Shown here: positions 5,655 to 33,011 of the stretch, in pieces | Layout: each line of letters opens with the position of its first letter | Position numbering within the stretch: position 1 is the first letter of the stretch | IMG/VR virus record: IMGVR_UViG_2698536317_000003 | Direction: 5' to 3' (one strand) | Length of the DNA stretch: 56,811 nt | Origin: a virus | Lineage: Duplodnaviria > Heunggongvirae > Uroviricota > Caudoviricetes | Made by a program: the position numbers and the translations under genes | The notes under the pieces: model-generated | The model's database searches: none | What the model was told of the DNA's origin: nothing | The model's input: the letters and a program-made list of their open reading frames with translations, nothing else

Positions 5655-8600
5655 TTACCATGATCCGGTAATTCGTCCAATTTGGACGCGCAACCTACCG
5701 TTTCCATCCCTAACGGAAATGGTTGTATTTGTTAGTTTCATCGCGCCCTCACCACTTACAGAACCGTAGTTTTCAAATGTGCCTGATTTATCCAGCTTCC
5801 AGCCTGTGCTATTGGAAACATAGTTGTTTGATTGAATGTATGAACCAATTTTTGCATTAGTGATTGACGCGTCTTTAATAAACGCCTCGCGCACATACAT
5901 TGCACCGTTAGACACATAGAAAGGCGTTGTATATGTGCCGTTTGCTGCGGTCATCAATACGAAGCGGTCAACAAGGAAGATACACTGCGATTGAACGTTA
6001 GTACCGTTTCCAGTCAGCCCAAGCGACATACCTGTTGCATACTTCATGCCGTTGTTGTCGGTTGCCAGCTTGATGGAATACGTCGCATCGACATTACCTT
6101 TGAAGTCGGTTAACGCTTTTGACGTCGTTTCTATCGCTGTTGTGTTCCCGTTAACGGTCACTGTTAGCTGATCGATTTTGCTTGATAATGCCTCGTCAGC
6201 CGTTGCCATAGACTGTGACCATTCTGTAATACTTGAGTTTACGGAATCGAAAGACGCTGAGATCTGGACGAATTTTTCAGCGCTTGATGCTTCATGCGTA
6301 GAAAGCGCCGTTGATACCTCAGACACCTTCGAGTTAATCGTACTGGTAAGCGATGAGTTAAGGCTACTTATCGCGTCAGTGCGTGCCTTCGTTTCGTCTG
6401 CAATTGCCTTGTCAATACGGGTCACGTTGCTTGTAACTTTGCCATCAAGGGTTGAAATTGACGCATTCACGCCACTGATGGCTTGTGCTCTGGCGCTGGC
6501 CTCATCAGCAATCGCCTGGTCCAGTCTGCTAACTTCGGATTCAGTGTTGCTTTCGAGGGTGTTAATGCTCGCATTCACTCCACTGATAGCTTCGGTTCTT
6601 GCGCTGGTTTCGTTGGCAATAGCCTGATCCAAACGTTTAACGCTGGCGTCGGTTTTCTTGTCGAGCGCTGAAATGCTTGCGTTAACGTCGCTCACTGCCT
6701 GGCTGCGTGCGCTGGTTTCGTCGGCGATGGCCTGATCAAGGCGGGAAACACTCGCTTCGGTTTTCTTATCAAGATCCGTGATCGATGCTTTTACCACGCT
6801 AACCGCTTCCGCTGTAGCCTTTTTCTCTTCAGCGATAACATTGTCAATACGGTCAATTTGCGCGTTGGTTTCTTTGCGTCCTTTCTTGTATTGGGCAGTA
6901 AGAGTAACACGCGTGTTGGTTTGAGCGATTGAGTTGTTAATCAGAGCAATCGAGGCGTTTTGCAGGCTTGCTTTGGTCTGGCTTATTTCGTCGCTGTTCT
7001 TGTCAACGTTGTTTTCAACCTTACCCAGTTCGGCGCTGATTCCAGATATAGCCTGCGCACGGGCGCTTGACTCGTCAGCAATAGCCTGGTCCAAGCGTTT
7101 GACGCTGGCGTTTGTGTTACTTTCGAGCGTTGTTAAATCAGCTTTGACCTCTGTTATTGCGTCGCTTCTTGCCTGAGTTTCGTCAGATATTGCCTTATCG
7201 AGTCTGCTCACGCTGGCGTCGGTTTTGCTTTCAAGATTGCTTATTGAGGCATTAACGCCGCTGATTGCCTGCGCACGGGCGCTTGATTCGTCGGCAATTG
7301 CTTGATCAAGACGGTTCACGCTGGCGTCAGTTTTCTTGTCAAGATCAGCGATCGATGCGTTCACGTTATTAATTGCTTCTGCGCGGGCGCTTGATTCGTC
7401 TGCCACTGCGCGTTCCACGCTGGAGATCTGACCCTTAAGGTTGGAATCCATCGTGTTCATTTCTGCCGTGATGGTTTTCAGCGATTCAGCCGTGGCCCGC
7501 TTCTCTTCGGCAATAACGTTGTCGATGCTGTCAATCTGCGCGTTTGTTTCTGATTGCCATTTCTTGTACTGTGCAGTGAGCGTAACCCGCGTGTTGGTCT
7601 GCGCGAGAGAGTTATTAATCAGCGCCAAAGATGCGTTTTGCAGGCTTGCTTTTGCTTGCGCCAGTTCGCTGTCGATTCTTTCGCTGGATACCTCTAGCGA
7701 GTCAATCCTTACCTCATGTTGCCCAATACCATCGGTGTTTTCACCAACCTTTTTATAAAGATCTTCCGTCTCTTTTTTCAGCGTGTCAGTGTCAGCTTTT
7801 ATTTCACCTGTTTCTGTGATTAAGCTGTCAGTGTCAGTCCTCAATTCGTCAGTGATGTTTGTCAGGTTGTCAGTTGCAGTTTTTAGGTTGTCAGTAGCGT
7901 TTTTAAGGTCATTTGTGGCGCTTTCGATAAGGTCGGCACGGTCGCCAAGATCTTTAATGTCGCCAATCATGTCCTTGAACTGTTCTGACTCCATGACATC
8001 CTTCATCACGTAGTCGCTGATTTCGTCGAAGTTTTCAGTCGGTTTTCCTGATGCCTCAACGAAGTCTGACACACCGAAAGCGTTACGCGTGCGCACATAA
8101 ACGTAATATTTATGGCCCGTGTTCATGCCGCCAAAAGTCCATTGGTAGCCTCGCCCGGTGAATTGCGCCAAAGTTGTTACTTTTGACGGGTCAGTGATCT
8201 GATTTTCACCTGAGTAGTAAAACTCATATGCTGTATCAGTTGTCAGGGTTGTTTTGCTGATCGGATACACTGTTGCCTGGAAAACGCCAGGAACCCAATT
8301 AACACCAATCGGGGCGGCTGGCGCACCAATGACCAGATCCACAATACTTTCCGCACCCTTCATGCCAGTGTCATTACGCCCGCGAATACCAAGCGTGTAG
8401 CTGCCAGCGTCGAGGCCATAAAAATCATAGCGGTAGTTCGTGGTTTCATAAGTTGCCACTACACGCCCATCGGCGTTATATACGCGAATTTCAAAGGTCA
8501 GGCGATGCGTTGTTGTCTGTGTTTCCCACGTTGCGCGACATTGAACAGTTTCAGAACCAACATTTAACACCTTCAGGTTTTCGATGTTCGGCACGCGGAA

Positions 8601-10439
8601 GTGATTAAGCGTGTCGTTGTTTACCTCAAAGATTGCGCCTTCATCGACTACAGCCTGTTTGTGAGGATCGTGCTGTGCAGCCTCAATGGTGTACACGCTG
8701 TTGTTTTCGGTTTCCGCTACGCTGGTAATTCGACACAGAACGGGTTTTGCAGATTCAGTCGATACGGCAAATACGGTTCCGTTACGAATCCATGCGGGCG
8801 CTGCCGCAAGGGTAATATTGTTTCCGTTAACTCCAGTGATCTGATGTTTTTTAAACTTGCCGTCGCTGTCCAGTAAGCTGATAGTGTCACCAGTCGCCAC
8901 CAGGTCAGAATCAACCTTGTCTACAGTTATCACCTTCCCGTTATTCGCCACGACGCGACCGCCTAAACGAGCGCCAGCGCGGTTATTGTCGAGTATCTCG
9001 ATAATATCCCCTGGCGTAAAGTGAATCGCGTCACGCGCCATTTTAAACGTGAATTTTGACGGCTCGCGTTTTGCTGTTTCTATCAGCCACTTGCCCGCGC
9101 GGTATGCTTGCCCGCGTGATGTGCACCCGAACGCCTCTAACGTGGTTTCGTTGTAACCATCACGGGCGATCAGTTCATCGTCTGCTACATACTCTTTTGA
9201 TTGCTCCCATCCGTTTTCCGGGTCAGTCCATGATACGATCACGGCGTTGTAGCATTCTGCGCGGGCGATACTTGAACGAGTAAACGCGCCATCAACGACA
9301 TTTGCATTTGTAATGGTGGCGATCGGGTCTAGTGGTGCATCAATCATCACGGTAAGGCGTTGCCCGTCCCATAACGCGATACCCCTGAACATCCCGGCGA
9401 TATTGTCCAGTAAGTCGCGGGCGCTCATTTGCTCTGTGATGTAAGCGTTAAGCGTCATGCGAGGCTCAAGGCCGCCGTAGCCATCATCAACCAACTGGTC
9501 GCAGTATTGAGAAAGCGTATATAATGCGCCGTCGTCAACGTCAATATAACCAGCGTGACGAGCAAGGCCGAAACGCTCGTTTTTAACCAGATAGCGGAAG
9601 ATCCATGCTGGGTTATTGGTGTACGCCTGTTTGAAGCCGCCAAGCCACAAACCGGAATAAGTGCGCTTTTCCGGGTCGTAGTTATCAGGAATATCAACAA
9701 TCAGCCCGCGAAGGTGATAGGTGCGGGTAGGCGTGTCAGCGTACTGATCATGGTCAATTACCGCGCCAGCTACAGCGGTGTGAGGATAAGACAAATTATC
9801 GTCGATTATTTCGCTGTAGCTACTCCATCGCGTATCATTCTGCAACAGATCGCTTGTGCTATCAGCGGTTACACGGCGAACGCGAATATCAAACGGTTTT
9901 TCATCTGGTGCATTGATAATATGCGCTTCAAGATATTCTCCGCTGATCTTACCTGGGCCTATAGTAACGTCTTTAACAAGCGTCCACGTAGAAGAAGACG
10001 AAGGCTTCACGTCAATCATCATCATAACCGATGTGTTATGTTGATTGCTTTGCTCGTCAGATTGTACAAGTGAATCGACGCCGATATTCAGGCGAACGCG
10101 GTTTACGTTAGGATCGGAAACGGTCCTGATTATTGGTGTATCGTGTTTAACCTGTGCGTTAACAATAACGGTTGATTCAATGGCGTTAAAACCGTTAATC
10201 GGTGATTGATCTATCGTACCATTGCGCCACGCTACGCTAATACCGGGGATGCTGGTATTGCCGTTCGCGTCAGTTACAGGGGTGTCATTAAGCATTACGC
10301 TGTTTAATGGCGCATTGGTATTAACAGGACCATAAATCGGACCTTCTGAAATAATGTCGAGTACACGATAAAACTGTTTGTGATATAGATTATCGTTAAT
10401 TAAAGTTGGTGTTTTTGCTTTGCCGCCGCCACTACTCAT
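5655..10439 (-). CDS. J: Host specificity / central tail fibre protein, lambda J-like, with long internal coiled-coil repeat region
   Basis: 1594-aa ORF downstream of I/K/L homologues; N-terminal region J-like; central tandem peptide repeats (RLDQAIADESSARAQAISGVNASI...). Confidence 0.85.
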   Translation of the reverse strand: MSSGGGKAKTPTLINDNLYHKQFYRVLDIISEGPIYGPVNTNAPLNSVMLNDTPVTDANGNTSIPGISVAWRNGTIDQSPINGFNAIESTVIVNAQVKHDTPIIRTVSDPNVNRVRLNIGVDSLVQSDEQSNQHNTSVMMMIDVKPSSSSTWTLVKDVTIGPGKISGEYLEAHIINAPDEKPFDIRVRRVTADSTSDLLQNDTRWSSYSEIIDDNLSYPHTAVAGAVIDHDQYADTPTRTYHLRGLIVDIPDNYDPEKRTYSGLWLGGFKQAYTNNPAWIFRYLVKNERFGLARHAGYIDVDDGALYTLSQYCDQLVDDGYGGLEPRMTLNAYITEQMSARDLLDNIAGMFRGIALWDGQRLTVMIDAPLDPIATITNANVVDGAFTRSSIARAECYNAVIVSWTDPENGWEQSKEYVADDELIARDGYNETTLEAFGCTSRGQAYRAGKWLIETAKREPSKFTFKMARDAIHFTPGDIIEILDNNRAGARLGGRVVANNGKVITVDKVDSDLVATGDTISLLDSDGKFKKHQITGVNGNNITLAAAPAWIRNGTVFAVSTESAKPVLCRITSVAETENNSVYTIEAAQHDPHKQAVVDEGAIFEVNNDTLNHFRVPNIENLKVLNVGSETVQCRATWETQTTTHRLTFEIRVYNADGRVVATYETTNYRYDFYGLDAGSYTLGIRGRNDTGMKGAESIVDLVIGAPAAPIGVNWVPGVFQATVYPISKTTLTTDTAYEFYYSGENQITDPSKVTTLAQFTGRGYQWTFGGMNTGHKYYVYVRTRNAFGVSDFVEASGKPTENFDEISDYVMKDVMESEQFKDMIGDIKDLGDRADLIESATNDLKNATDNLKTATDNLTNITDELRTDTDSLITETGEIKADTDTLKKETEDLYKKVGENTDGIGQHEVRIDSLEVSSERIDSELAQAKASLQNASLALINNSLAQTNTRVTLTAQYKKWQSETNAQIDSIDNVIAEEKRATAESLKTITAEMNTMDSNLKGQISSVERAVADESSARAEAINNVNASIADLDKKTDASVNRLDQAIADESSARAQAISGVNASISNLESKTDASVSRLDKAISDETQARSDAITEVKADLTTLESNTNASVKRLDQAIADESSARAQAISGISAELGKVENNVDKNSDEISQTKASLQNASIALINNSIAQTNTRVTLTAQYKKGRKETNAQIDRIDNVIAEEKKATAEAVSVVKASITDLDKKTEASVSRLDQAIADETSARSQAVSDVNASISALDKKTDASVKRLDQAIANETSARTEAISGVNASINTLESNTESEVSRLDQAIADEASARAQAISGVNASISTLDGKVTSNVTRIDKAIADETKARTDAISSLNSSLTSTINSKVSEVSTALSTHEASSAEKFVQISASFDSVNSSITEWSQSMATADEALSSKIDQLTVTVNGNTTAIETTSKALTDFKGNVDATYSIKLATDNNGMKYATGMSLGLTGNGTNVQSQCIFLVDRFVLMTAANGTYTTPFYVSNGAMYVREAFIKDASITNAKIGSYIQSNNYVSNSTGWKLDKSGTFENYGSVSGEGAMKLTNTTISVRDGNGRLRVQIGRITGSW
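6290..7700. repeat. Tandem in-frame coding repeats inside J-like gene (short units nested in a longer duplication)
   Basis: Repeated DNA blocks such as gcgcttgattcgtcggcaattgc...; protein blocks ASLQNAS(L/I)ALINNS(L/I)AQTNTRVTLTAQYKK occur twice. Confidence 0.7.
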
Positions 10440-23082: not shown

Positions 23083-24387
23083 TTAGAAATAAGTGTTAAA
23101 GTCTGGTACTTCGCCTTTTTTACCTTCGCTTGCTGCATTGGTTGCCATCGGCGCGGGTTTGCCCAGGGATTTAAACATCGCTTCTAACGCTTCACCGCTT
23201 AATGCGTTAGCAACAATTTCGCCGTGTACTTTTGCTACTGCGGCGCGTTTTTCTGCTACTTCTTTATTTGCGTTTGCTGCGATCTCTTCTTTGATCGCTT
23301 TCTGGTTGGTCTGCAATTCTTTTTGGTTGGTCTGTAATTCTTCAACGCTTGCCTGTACTGGTTTTAATGCCTCTGCTACTGCATTAGCGATATTAGCGGC
23401 TAAACCTTCGTTAATTTCTTTTACCAGTTCGGCGCGTTCTTCTTTGGTCAAAGGCATGGGATCGTCCTCCGATTTATTGGCCTTAATTTTTTCATTCAGG
23501 GAGAAAAGATTAGAAAGGTGTTCGGCGAACTGAGCGAACCATGATTTACTTTCCTCATTGGTTGCAAGCTCGCCATTATTGAGAATAATTTTATCAGCCT
23601 GTTTCTGGTAGTTGTATTTTTCCGCGTAATTTTTGTTGGTTGCAATTGTCACTTCTTTATCAGTGAAGTCCACAACATAGACATAATCGGCATCAGGAAG
23701 TAATTCACGCGCCGCTTCCGTCAGTTGTCTTTCAAGCGTGCGATAGCTGTTTTCTTTCATTGCCACAGCCATTAAAGGCTTCGCCTGGTCAGTGTTAACC
23801 ATCAGGCCAACGCCCTGCTCTGGCGATGCGGCTGGCGGTTCATGCAGTAAGATAGCGTCATGGTCGATCGACATGATTTTAACAACGCTATCAGCACCCT
23901 GGGCCTTCATCTCTTCAGTAGCTGGCATACGCTGACGATATACGGCTACGGATGACCAGATAGGATCTTTGCTTTCGCCTTTTTCCAGTGCTTCGAGTCG
24001 GCTTAGCAATTCGCGCCCCTGTTCTGAATGGCTGGCGGTTTCAACATCCACCCATTTTTCCACATAAACACGGTTGCCACGTAATTCAACATTTCTGTTC
24101 CATGCACCACAAAAGCCAATATTCAGACCTTCCGGGCTAAATGCGGAAACAAATTCACCGTCAACCGTAGGATGTCCCAGCGGTGCGAGCGTGCCTTCCA
24201 GAGATTGATAATTAGCAATGATTTCAGCTTCCGGGTAATATTCCCGATTCATAACGATATTGAAGGGCAATGTATATGACGGAACAACAATATGCTCACG
24301 CCCGTTATACGTTTCCCGGCGTATGGTGTTAGCGGTTAATTTGGTATTAACCTGAATCAATTCTTTATTCACGATTTTTACTCCCAA
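23083..24387 (-). CDS. Putative prohead protease / scaffolding protein
   Basis: 434-aa ORF between head-morphogenesis and decoration genes; C-terminal coiled coil with in-frame 7-aa duplication ELQTNQK. Confidence 0.45.
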   Translation of the reverse strand: MGVKIVNKELIQVNTKLTANTIRRETYNGREHIVVPSYTLPFNIVMNREYYPEAEIIANYQSLEGTLAPLGHPTVDGEFVSAFSPEGLNIGFCGAWNRNVELRGNRVYVEKWVDVETASHSEQGRELLSRLEALEKGESKDPIWSSVAVYRQRMPATEEMKAQGADSVVKIMSIDHDAILLHEPPAASPEQGVGLMVNTDQAKPLMAVAMKENSYRTLERQLTEAARELLPDADYVYVVDFTDKEVTIATNKNYAEKYNYQKQADKIILNNGELATNEESKSWFAQFAEHLSNLFSLNEKIKANKSEDDPMPLTKEERAELVKEINEGLAANIANAVAEALKPVQASVEELQTNQKELQTNQKAIKEEIAANANKEVAEKRAAVAKVHGEIVANALSGEALEAMFKSLGKPAPMATNAASEGKKGEVPDFNTYF

Positions 24388-25322
24388 TCTTCGCCATATT
24401 TAGCGTGCGCAACCTTATAGTTTTCTTGCGCCCGTTCTAATATTCGTTTGTTTAATATATTACCGTCTTCGTCAACTAATACGGTAATAGTGCTGCATTT
24501 GCAGTTAATTGAATTAGGGGATCTACTCCACCATTCGCGCTGCTCTTCTATGGTGTATGTTTTCCCGTGTCGCTGTGCGTGTGATAGCCTGGTAGTCGGT
24601 GACAATGCCGAAATGTGCATTTGCATAGTGCGCAAGTTAAGCTCATCCGATGCGGCTTCTGCCTCATCCATACGCGCTGTGCGTAACGCTGTGCATATTT
24701 CAGTACGGGCAATACGTTTGCACCTGTATAGCGGTAATTGCGTTTCCTGCTGCAATGTGCGCGCTATTTCTAGTGGGTTTAGGCCACGGGCCATGCCTTC
24801 GGTTAATCGGCGGGCCATATCCTTCTTGATCTGTGCGGTAAGCCCGCGCATCTCTTCAAATACACGGGTACGAACCAGGGCAAGGCGTGTGCGATATGTC
24901 TGACTGGTTAATACCGCAGACACTTCAGGGTAAGCCCTGGAATATGTGACTGACTGGTTAGCGAGGTTGGCATATTCCTGAGAAGTGCCGCGCTGATATG
25001 CCACCTTCACGTATTCCTGCCAGAACCAGAAGTTTTCCGGGTCTGTTAACTCGAATATTTCATCAATCATGTCGCTGGCGTCTTCCAGCAAATCATGTAA
25101 TTCGTCGATGTAGATCTGGAAGGTGTATTTTTTATTAACAGCCAGGGTATATTGTATTCTGTCCAGTATGGCGATATATGGATCGGCTACTTTCTTCAGG
25201 CAGGCTTTAAAACGCTTGATAGCACCAGACCTTAACTTCCCTGTCATGGTCGGGTCTTCGGTGTTAGATGGCATTATCGCGGCTGGAGGTATTCGCCTGA
25301 TTATCTTCTTCACCCTCATCAT
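24378..25322 (-). CDS. Head morphogenesis protein (SPP1 gp7 / Mu F-like)
   Basis: 314-aa ORF downstream of portal. Confidence 0.65.
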   Translation of the reverse strand: MMRVKKIIRRIPPAAIMPSNTEDPTMTGKLRSGAIKRFKACLKKVADPYIAILDRIQYTLAVNKKYTFQIYIDELHDLLEDASDMIDEIFELTDPENFWFWQEYVKVAYQRGTSQEYANLANQSVTYSRAYPEVSAVLTSQTYRTRLALVRTRVFEEMRGLTAQIKKDMARRLTEGMARGLNPLEIARTLQQETQLPLYRCKRIARTEICTALRTARMDEAEAASDELNLRTMQMHISALSPTTRLSHAQRHGKTYTIEEQREWWSRSPNSINCKCSTITVLVDEDGNILNKRILERAQENYKVAHAKYGEDWE

Positions 25323-26655
25323 CGTCCTCCTCTTCCGTTTCTACTTCACTGGCTGGGCCATCGTATCCGGCAGCCTCGCGGATCTCGTCACCGCTAAATA
25401 TTTCTTCACCAGTAGCCAGACAAGCCTGATTGATTTGTGCCATTTTGTCTGCGGCTTCCAGTAGCTCTGCTTTGGTCATGGCGTTAAGGTCGTCCCATAG
25501 CACTGATACATCTACTGGCATACTGATAAGGCGTAGATCTGCCATCTTGCGGAACAGATCTTCAATCTCGCCACCGATTTCCTCCCTGCGGGTCATGCAG
25601 CGGCTGTTGAAGTAACGCAGGTCTTCGGTTGATGCACGCTCTCCCTGTTGGTTCCCAACCAGGATGCGGGTTGGAATATCAACACCAGCGGCGGCGGTTT
25701 GCAGGTTTACATCATAGGTTGATGACGGGTCAGACACGGCAGTAACCAGCGGGCTTACTGTCGCACCCTGTAACGCCATCATTACGTCATTACCCTTATT
25801 CATTTCAGCCGTAGCCTCATTGAATCTTTCGCGTAACTCTGTAACGTCGCAATCGTATGTTGCAGCCAGGGAACGGAAGTCAATCTCTTTATCGAACGAA
25901 ATAGCAAGCTGACGCGCTGCGTTTTTCAGGAATGATTCACCACTACCGCCTTCCACTTTTTCCAGTGATACGAATGCGTTGTAGGAAGGTTCAAGGAAAG
26001 CGATGACATCATCAGAATAGTCGCCAAAGATGAATATGCGGTCAGGGTGGATCTTTCTGGCAATGGTCTTACTGTTAATGCGTTCTTTGTATTCCCACCA
26101 TGTCGGCAGGCCATAATTTTCACTGTCCGGGTCTTCTTCGAACTCCTTCGGTGTAAGAGCGCCAGCCCACACAGGGGTAAATTTGGCAATACCTACGCCT
26201 TTTGTCACTGGCTGATCCCACGGCTGGTTATCTCTGACATGAATCAACAGACCAGCATAACGACCAATGAGGCGGCGGCGATCACATTCAGCAACAGTGC
26301 GCCAAAATCTGTTGTTAAATTTCTTCTTGATTTCTCTTTCCCACGGTGTTTCCTTTTTCGCTTTCTCGTCTTCAGTTCCCTCAATCATCTTTGGCTTGGT
26401 GCGCCAGCAAGTCGTAACAATCTTTTCTACAGCACCGTGAGCGATGCCGCCGCGTCTGTACAGTTTGTATAGATCGTGGTACGTGATCTCTTCTTTGAAT
26501 CCGTATTCACTCCACGCAGCATCACGTTTGGCATCTATCCCCATAGTGAATGGGTTGGCTGCGGCATAGCGGGCGTAGGCCGCCTGGCGTTGTGACAAGG
26601 CAGCATTAACCGCCAATTCTAAATTGGATGGCATAATGTTTACTCCTGAATACAT
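25264..26655 (-). CDS. Portal protein
   Basis: 463-aa ORF after large terminase, acidic C-terminus; likely true start at internal ATG 26634 after AGGAG. Confidence 0.8.
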   Translation of the reverse strand: MYSGVNIMPSNLELAVNAALSQRQAAYARYAAANPFTMGIDAKRDAAWSEYGFKEEITYHDLYKLYRRGGIAHGAVEKIVTTCWRTKPKMIEGTEDEKAKKETPWEREIKKKFNNRFWRTVAECDRRRLIGRYAGLLIHVRDNQPWDQPVTKGVGIAKFTPVWAGALTPKEFEEDPDSENYGLPTWWEYKERINSKTIARKIHPDRIFIFGDYSDDVIAFLEPSYNAFVSLEKVEGGSGESFLKNAARQLAISFDKEIDFRSLAATYDCDVTELRERFNEATAEMNKGNDVMMALQGATVSPLVTAVSDPSSTYDVNLQTAAAGVDIPTRILVGNQQGERASTEDLRYFNSRCMTRREEIGGEIEDLFRKMADLRLISMPVDVSVLWDDLNAMTKAELLEAADKMAQINQACLATGEEIFSGDEIREAAGYDGPASEVETEEEDDDEGEEDNQANTSSRDNAI

Positions 26656-32204: not shown

Positions 32205-32405
32205 TCAATCATTTTTGCGCTCCTTAATGGCTCGCATGATGTTAATACGCATAGCGTCACTGAATGCGTATATCGTAATGAAAGGCCAGAAGACTAGCTC
32301 GAACCAAATAATGCCGTCACTATCAACAGCTTTCTGAAAAGCGCCCATTAAAATGACACCAGCCAGGTAAATTATAACTACCGCAACAATAATGCATTCA
32401 ATCAT
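32205..32405 (-). CDS. Small membrane protein (MIECIIVAVVIIYLAGVILMGAF...), full-length copy
   Basis: Starts inside 227-bp duplication copy 1 and extends into unique sequence. Confidence 0.4.
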   Translation of the reverse strand: MIECIIVAVVIIYLAGVILMGAFQKAVDSDGIIWFELVFWPFITIYAFSDAMRINIMRAIKERKND

Positions 32406-32529
32406 CTTCACCCCCAAGATCATGATAAATATCGTTAGGGTCTTCACCATGTTCCTCGCAAAAACGCTCAAATAGCGCCCAATTTTCAGAAAGAAACATG
32501 ATTAATAAATTTTTATACCACTCTTCCAT
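32398..32529 (-). CDS. Acidic small protein MEEWYKN...GGEDD (43 aa), copy 1
   Basis: GAGGA RBS; identical copy at 32625-32756. Confidence 0.4.
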   Translation of the reverse strand: MEEWYKNLLIMFLSENWALFERFCEEHGEDPNDIYHDLGGEDD

Positions 32530-32539
32530 TTAATCATCC

Positions 32540-32632
32540 TCAGTCACTATCAACAGCTTTCTGAAAAGCGCCCATTAAAATGACACCAGCCAGGTAAATT
32601 ATAACTACCGCAACAATAATGCATTCAATCAT
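32540..32632 (-). CDS. Truncated small membrane peptide (30 aa) created by the duplication junction
   Basis: Same N-terminus as 32205-32405 ORF, stop created at repeat junction. Confidence 0.3.
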   Translation of the reverse strand: MIECIIVAVVIIYLAGVILMGAFQKAVDSD

Positions 32633-32756
32633 CTTCACCCCCAAGATCATGATAAATATCGTTAGGGTCTTCACCATGTTCCTCGCAAAAACGCTCAAAT
32701 AGCGCCCAATTTTCAGAAAGAAACATGATTAATAAATTTTTATACCACTCTTCCAT
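32625..32756 (-). CDS. Acidic small protein MEEWYKN...GGEDD (43 aa), copy 2
   Basis: Identical to copy 1; start abuts stop of upstream ORF. Confidence 0.4.
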   Translation of the reverse strand: MEEWYKNLLIMFLSENWALFERFCEEHGEDPNDIYHDLGGEDD

Positions 32757-33011
32757 TTAATCATCCTCATCGTCTTCATGTTCAGCCAGGAACTCATCAA
32801 CCACGCGGCAAGTCACTGGCGGGATGTATTCGAAATCATCAGAATCAAGATCAAGCGTCCGGCTGTCGCCGTCATCGTCCAGCGTATTCATCCCTAACTC
32901 ACCGAAAGGGCCATACCCAATATGGCCCAGGTATTCGCATCCAGTAGTAAAGCCAGGGTATTCGCCTTTGCACCAGATCTTGTATAGCTTACTTGATGCG
33001 CTCAATTTCAA
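32757..33011 (-). CDS. Hypothetical protein (84 aa, acidic C-terminus)
   Basis: ORF in small-gene block. Confidence 0.35.
   Translation of the reverse strand: MKLSASSKLYKIWCKGEYPGFTTGCEYLGHIGYGPFGELGMNTLDDDGDSRTLDLDSDDFEYIPPVTCRVVDEFLAEHEDDEDD

Follow-up and report, generated by a model that had tools for sequence, protein, structure and literature searches.

An in-frame one-heptad duplication in the predicted helical C-terminal domain of a head-assembly gene of mEp021-like Escherichia coli prophages

In an E. coli prophage of the mEp021-like (mEpimmI) type, a gene for head assembly carries an in-frame tandem duplication of 21 bp, or seven codons, which adds exactly one heptad to the predicted helical C-terminal domain of its product. 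The window, by which we mean the whole stretch of 56,811 nucleotides analyzed here (IMG/VR record IMGVR_UViG_2698536317_000003), is such a prophage. Comparison with its relatives indicates that the duplication is an established, harmless-looking length variant common to many E. coli prophages. We regard this overall reading, including what it implies about a nested scaffold gene, the origin of the repeat, and near-neutrality, as likely to be correct. The two units both encode ELQTNQK and are placed as follows:

23320–23340, minus strand: upstream unit (5' in the coding direction), GAATTACAGACCAACCAAAAA, residues 345–351 of the 429-aa protein
23299–23319, minus strand: downstream unit, GAATTGCAGACCAACCAGAAA, residues 352–358 of the 429-aa protein

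Read on the plus strand, the units are TTTCTGGTTGGTCTGCAATTC (23299–23319) and TTTTTGGTTGGTCTGTAATTC (23320–23340). They lie in tandem, are identical at 19 of 21 positions, and leave the open reading frame intact; both differences between them (TTA/TTG and CAA/CAG) are synonymous. TRF reported an array at 23298–23342 with a period of 21, 2.1 copies, 91% matches, and a score of 76. The repeat is beyond chance, since the 21-nt unit matches with three or fewer mismatches at these two sites alone in the window, compared with 0.01 expected, and none of 60 triplet-shuffled windows yielded a tandem array of period ≥12 and score ≥70. The original prediction of an in-frame 21-bp duplication at 23299–23340, giving ELQTNQK-ELQTNQK, was thus exact in its coordinates and translation, and single-copy relatives do exist; its consensus string, at 20 letters, was one T short of the 21-nt unit. 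In the gene alignment, 1305 nt in the window correspond to 1284 nt, with a single unit, in the mEp phages and most prophages, and by this comparison the 21 bp are a true insertion relative to relatives. An identical two-copy allele is found in the prophage of an independent complete genome, E. coli NZ_CM136176.1, where the gene is 99.5% identical. Proteins identical or nearly identical to that of the window (P0001–P0014) come from NCBI, ENA, and Logan assemblies, and two-copy protein clusters occur on dozens of contigs from the same three sources. Because independent assemblies carry two copies, the objection that reads might support only one is effectively answered, and the suggested comparison with related prophages revealed a copy number that differs among them.

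The repeat had been assigned to the coiled-coil region of a scaffold/protease-like gene, and both parts of this assignment fit the domain layout, in which a predicted protease domain is followed by a long helical domain and the gene occupies the scaffold slot of the head module. An AlphaFold2 monomer model was built from a 46-sequence alignment (mean pLDDT 79), and the gene can be divided as follows:

23083–24372, minus strand: full-length gene, 429 aa plus stop, with a prohead protease domain, a middle domain, and a helical scaffold-like tail; phrog_760, E 4e-133
23803–24330, minus strand: N-terminal domain, residues ~15–190, predicted T4 gp21/herpesvirus assemblin prohead-protease fold, confident alpha/beta in the AlphaFold2 model
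23578–23754, minus strand: small middle alpha/beta domain, residues ~207–265, AlphaFold2 pLDDT 85–90
23224–23445, minus strand: single 74-residue alpha-helix, residues 310–383, with both repeat units inside it, AlphaFold2 pLDDT ~90, heptad a/d pattern

The gene starts at the GTG at 24372, directly after the stop of an upstream Mu-F-like gene, and GGGAG lies 8 nt ahead of this codon at 24385–24381. The PGAP and mEp021 annotations also use this start, while the program-made list of open reading frames stretches the gene to a TTG at 24387. Its identity to the genes of mEp044, mEp010, mEp554, mEp013, mEp021, mEp515, and MagusPhagus is 88–92%. The head module runs from terminase through portal (PF06381), Mu-F-like minor head protein (PF04233), the phrog_760 gene, decoration protein (phrog_766), and major capsid protein (DUF6260/phrog_771) to DUF7370, so that the protease/scaffold-like gene follows the portal and minor head genes and precedes that for the major capsid protein. 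The order from portal to capsid is the same in homologous loci at 55–60% identity from Citrobacter, Cedecea, and metagenomes. In every phage or genome record examined, the gene is called a hypothetical protein (e.g., mEp021_54, mEp044_81, and WP_244606306.1), and phrog_760 has no assigned function.

Some annotations in and around this gene call for separate comment. In the mEp044 record, the neighboring Mu-F-like gene is mislabelled as a head decoration protein. The portal gene (PF06381 Phage_portal_3, phrog_146; window 25264–26655, minus strand; L004 22182–23552) bears the PGAP name “anti-CBASS protein Acb1 family protein” in NZ_CM136176.1, which seems to reflect how a portal-related family model was named, and not the presence of an anti-defense gene. 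The mEp044 record also places a Rho-independent terminator (ARNold, T9) on the opposite strand at L001 3279–3323, equivalent to about 23382–23426 of the window and some 40 nt from the repeat; lying inside coding sequence, this terminator is probably a false call.

The evidence for a protease consists of a predicted fold together with conserved residues. In the AlphaFold2 model, the N-terminal domain appears to have the fold characteristic of gp21 and assemblin, although its sequence identity to gp21/assemblin structures is 9–13%. His67, Ser141, and Asp170-His171-Asp172 are invariant across the 46 sequences, down to ~30% identity, and their order (His, Ser, His) agrees with that of the assemblin triad. 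The N-terminal domain is consequently proposed to be a prohead protease of the T4 gp21/assemblin fold (MEROPS clan SH). Sequence searches were silent on this point. Pfam returned no family for the N-terminal domain at E ≤ 10, including S77, S78, S80, S21, and DUF2213, and no family for the 46 members at E ≤ 0.01; default and permissive Pfam searches with the whole protein and both halves gave weak coiled-coil noise alone, and PDB sequence searches with protein and profile queries gave no match. The name DUF2213 appears just as the UniRef name of two clusters, and a literature search for it retrieved incidental mentions alone. The domains are joined by low-confidence or disordered linkers at residues 192–206 and 267–305 in the model. 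A 17-residue insertion in the middle domain (YVYCAYDGGILVDGVYHE-like) was seen in a sub-lineage comprising L010 and L011 (E. coli STEC308 and RM9245), L054, and L056, so length variation in the protein extends beyond the helix.

The helical tail is most likely also translated on its own, from an internal start, as a 124-aa scaffolding protein. An in-frame ATG (Met306) lies at 23457–23455, where the helical tail begins, and the elements of the putative nested gene are these:

23466–23470, minus strand: internal Shine–Dalgarno-like GGAGG, 8 nt upstream of the internal ATG, the sole GGAGG in the gene
23083–23457, minus strand: proposed nested in-frame gene, 124-aa product MPLTKEERAEL...NTYF, with a conserved Met and an upstream GGAG(G)/GAGG

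The predicted nested product would be 124 aa long in the window, against 117 aa where the allele has a single unit. Nine lineages spanning 35–100% identity keep the homologous Met with a GGAGG, GGAG, or GAGG ahead of it, and in each of them this ATG is the sole internal in-frame ATG preceded by a Shine–Dalgarno-like site; in several, the sole GGAGG in the gene precedes it. The amino acids encoded across this stretch vary (SEDDP, TEGD, QEGD, PEDLN, KEETD, and ENPDA). A Met and a ribosome-binding-like site that persist while the residues encoded across them change are the signature of an internal start. The conserved Met and the acidic linker could instead mark a maturation cleavage site. The mEp021 record provides further, indirect support. 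In GenBank, gp55–58 and gp60 of mEp021 are labelled virion structural proteins, and the homologue gp54 is labelled hypothetical, as might be the case for a scaffold that mature virions lack. The labels of this record follow virion mass spectrometry, which the mEp021 paper describes for 16 proteins (PMC11893012); gp54 is not listed explicitly in the text or supplements of that paper.

The repeat lies inside the heptad-patterned part of the helix, in agreement with the coiled-coil location first proposed. In the numbering of the nested product, the upstream unit is residues 40–46 and the downstream unit residues 47–53. The best heptad register is unchanged over residues 15–50 of this product, with a/d pairs V/L, Q/L, Q/I, and I/N; in each unit the d position is taken by Leu and the a position by Gln. 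The pattern is a modest one that includes polar Gln in the a row, but the model suggests that this is a coiled-coil-type helix, being long, uninterrupted, and hydrophobic at a and d in a consistent register. The one variable residue (K or E) falls at a solvent-exposed b position. Adding seven residues would keep the a/d stripes upstream and downstream in phase and make the helix some 1 nm longer (7 x 0.15 nm). The duplication would be tolerated because the register is preserved and the helix is just longer, and for assembly the change is probably neutral or close to it.

Changes of helix length in the wider family follow the same rule. We measured the number of residues between conserved KP and KR anchors in the 60 representatives that have the KR anchor:

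17 residues between anchors: 3 sequences
24 residues between anchors: 11 sequences
31 residues between anchors: 33 sequences
38 residues between anchors: 4 sequences
21 residues between anchors: 2 sequences
28 residues between anchors: 4 sequences
35 residues between anchors: 2 sequences
25 residues between anchors: 1 sequence

Two series with steps of seven can be recognized, 17/24/31/38 (51 of the 60 sequences) and 21/28/35. One protein, P0121, has an independent insertion of seven residues at about the same place (TDSVQAV-TKSVDGL). Taken together, these lengths and the P0121 insertion indicate that heptad-quantized indels are the normal mode of length change in this helix, and the duplication in the window is the latest example.

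Copy number is polymorphic among E. coli prophages, as had been anticipated, with one, two, or three units. The unit is single in 42, double in 16, and triple in one of the 59 DNA alleles drawn from genomes, phages, and IMG/VR contigs; among 90 full-length close protein clusters (79–100% identical), 46–47 have one unit, 43 have two, and one (P0078) has three. The two-copy allele therefore makes up about a quarter to a half of alleles, depending on the set. It exists in two forms, ELQTNQK-ELQTNQK, as in the window, and ELQTNQE-ELQTNQK. All seven isolated phages matched in the phage collection (mEp021, 044, 010, 013, 554, 515, and MagusPhagus) have a single unit, so that no plaque-forming phage with two copies was found among these matches. 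Homologues at 35–60% identity from Citrobacter, Cedecea, and metagenomes contain one LQTNQ-like unit, and because these distant relatives have one copy, the comparison identifies the single-unit state as ancestral. The two-copy allele is inferred to be viable because it has spread and is under purifying selection. Contigs and genomes are ~52–57 kb for one- and two-copy phages alike, and hence there is no sign of an altered capsid size.

The distribution of synonymous codons points to one old founding duplication that was later spread by recombination. The sixth codon is CAA in 18 of 18 upstream units of multi-copy alleles, while 17 of 17 last units, like 39 of the 42 single-copy alleles, have CAG-AAA; CAA also occurs in three single-copy alleles (L022, L037, and L043). 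The downstream unit of the window thus corresponds to the unit of single-copy alleles, and a single origin is favored on parsimony because every upstream unit carries the derived CAA. On a tree built without the repeat, copy number was strongly structured (six Fitch changes, compared with ~30 for shuffled states) but was not monophyletic, and at least three different C-terminal tails follow the two-copy allele. This lack of monophyly and the differing tails suggest that homologous recombination between prophages moved the allele. The three-copy allele has two identical upstream units, a sign of recent further expansion. In outline, a single duplication would have arisen, probably through a slipped-strand or microhomology-mediated replication error, with which the AAG...AAG microhomology flanking the 21-nt unit in single-copy alleles is compatible. 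A synonymous CAG>CAA change in the upstream copy would have followed, and then a K>E change in the upstream copy of one sub-lineage; homologous recombination would have carried the allele between related prophages, and one lineage would have grown on to three copies. The slipped-strand event of the original prediction can be kept in this form, but not a recent date for it, given the two synonymous differences and the occurrence of the allele on different backgrounds in many prophages.

Two other repeats in the window deserve mention. At 32316–32769 there is a perfect (100% identical) tandem duplication of 227 bp, which doubles a 43-aa open reading frame (MEEWYKNLL...) and the 5' part of a small membrane-like open reading frame on the minus strand. 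In the nearest E. coli genomes, whose flanks are 100% and 99.1% identical, this sequence is single-copy (~674 bp versus 901 bp), which makes the 227-bp duplication private to the window; it either arose very recently or was introduced during assembly. An imperfect 21-bp tandem array at 7848–7909 (2–2.5 copies, 79–90% matches) lies inside a minus-strand open reading frame of 1594 aa (5655–10439), the size of a tail fiber, and may represent a second in-frame repeat within a structural protein.

Short tandem duplications often arise as artefacts and also as recent mutations, and the private-looking 227-bp repeat shows that the window may contain one or the other. That the ELQTNQK repeat is likewise a private, very recent slip in this strain, or an error of assembly or sequencing, is nevertheless extremely improbable: its units have diverged at two synonymous sites, the same allele is present in NZ_CM136176.1 and in clusters on dozens of contigs, and a further 16 DNA alleles carry at least two units. 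It is hardly more credible that the repeat serves at the DNA or RNA level, as an iteron, a packaging signal, or a regulatory hairpin. A direct repeat of 21 bp, about two turns of DNA, might suggest such an element, but the unit is found nowhere else in the window, even with three mismatches, RNA folding is not significant (z = -1.66) with the stem outside the repeat, and relatives with one unit are viable phages. Moreover, the variation between units and between alleles is synonymous or confined to the exposed b position, the signature of selection at the level of the protein. Phase variation was considered and excluded by the multiple-of-three unit, the low copy number, and the differences between copies.

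Whether the two-copy state arose once or several times is a closer question. The site could be a mutational hotspot at which, for example, the K-form and the E-form arose separately. Such a history would account for the five to eight changes that the two-copy state needs on trees built from the remainder of the protein; shifting the duplicated segment by 1 nt would yield the K-form or the E-form directly, the two identical units of the three-copy allele show that slippage is ongoing, and P0121 gained its seven residues independently nearby. However, each event would need the same synonymous change to produce CAA in 18 of 18 upstream units, and the mosaic C-terminal tails show that recombination in the gene is frequent. 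Multiple independent origins are thus possible, but less parsimonious than a single origin given the common CAA, and we judge them unlikely. Turning to function, the extra heptad might be adaptive, with the length of the scaffold helix serving as a ruler, or as a means of tuning, fitted to a capsid, portal, or decoration partner, and with the two-copy allele spreading because of the advantage it gives. The two-copy allele is common and old enough to have diverged, and family helix lengths change only in heptad or half-heptad quanta, as if both length and register were constrained. Yet one- and two-copy phages and contigs do not differ in size, every isolated viable phage is single-copy, and preservation of the register alone predicts heptad quantization, all of which leaves an adaptive role quite improbable. 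The specific proposal that the scaffold helix is a heptad-quantized ruler, its length classes (17, 24, 31, 38) fitted to capsid or portal partners, and that two- and three-unit mEpimmI alleles are selected and alter the kinetics or geometry of procapsid assembly, is speculative, and we consider it very unlikely. We therefore retain the reading of a single old duplication, spread by recombination and nearly neutral in its effect.

By itself, the duplication is of minor importance, but mEp021-like prophages could conveniently be typed by this natural difference in length. A gene recorded as hypothetical can now be annotated as a predicted prohead protease of the gp21/assemblin fold with a predicted scaffold, probably with a nested scaffold gene. 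The natural alleles of one, two, and three heptads, together with the seven-residue steps across the family, also form a ready allelic series for relating scaffold length to procapsid assembly.

Nested arrangements of protease and scaffold are known from lambda C/Nu3, Mu I/Z, and herpesvirus UL26/UL26.5. Like the lambda and Mu genes, the gene described here is flanked by portal/minor head genes on one side and the major capsid gene on the other; its N-terminal protease and C-terminal helical scaffold, both predicted, are fused in frame; and a family-conserved internal ribosome-binding site and ATG are found where the scaffold part begins, with initiation there suggested by the DNA. As in Mu, a Mu-F-like gene is immediately upstream. 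Unlike lambda C (S49/ClpP-type) and Mu I, the window protein has no detectable similarity to the Pfam families that cover them, and its predicted protease fold is gp21/assemblin-like, which sets it apart from lambda C. It is just 9–13% identical to T4 gp21 (PDB 5JBL) and herpesvirus assemblin, and the T4 scaffold gp22 is encoded by a separate gene, in contrast to the fused tail seen here.

In-frame heptad indels and tandem repeats are a general and well-known mode of length evolution in coiled coils. The duplication conforms to it, with seven codons, a preserved a/d register, one to three copies, and family steps of seven. It differs from hypervariable contingency loci in its low copy number, its stability, its diverged copies, and the lack of frameshift switching. 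The closest comparison is with the mEpimmI coliphages themselves (mEp021, mEp010, mEp013, mEp044, mEp515, and mEp554; PMC11893012), whose head module has the same gene order at 88–92% DNA identity; these six isolates and MagusPhagus have a single unit, whereas the window has two.
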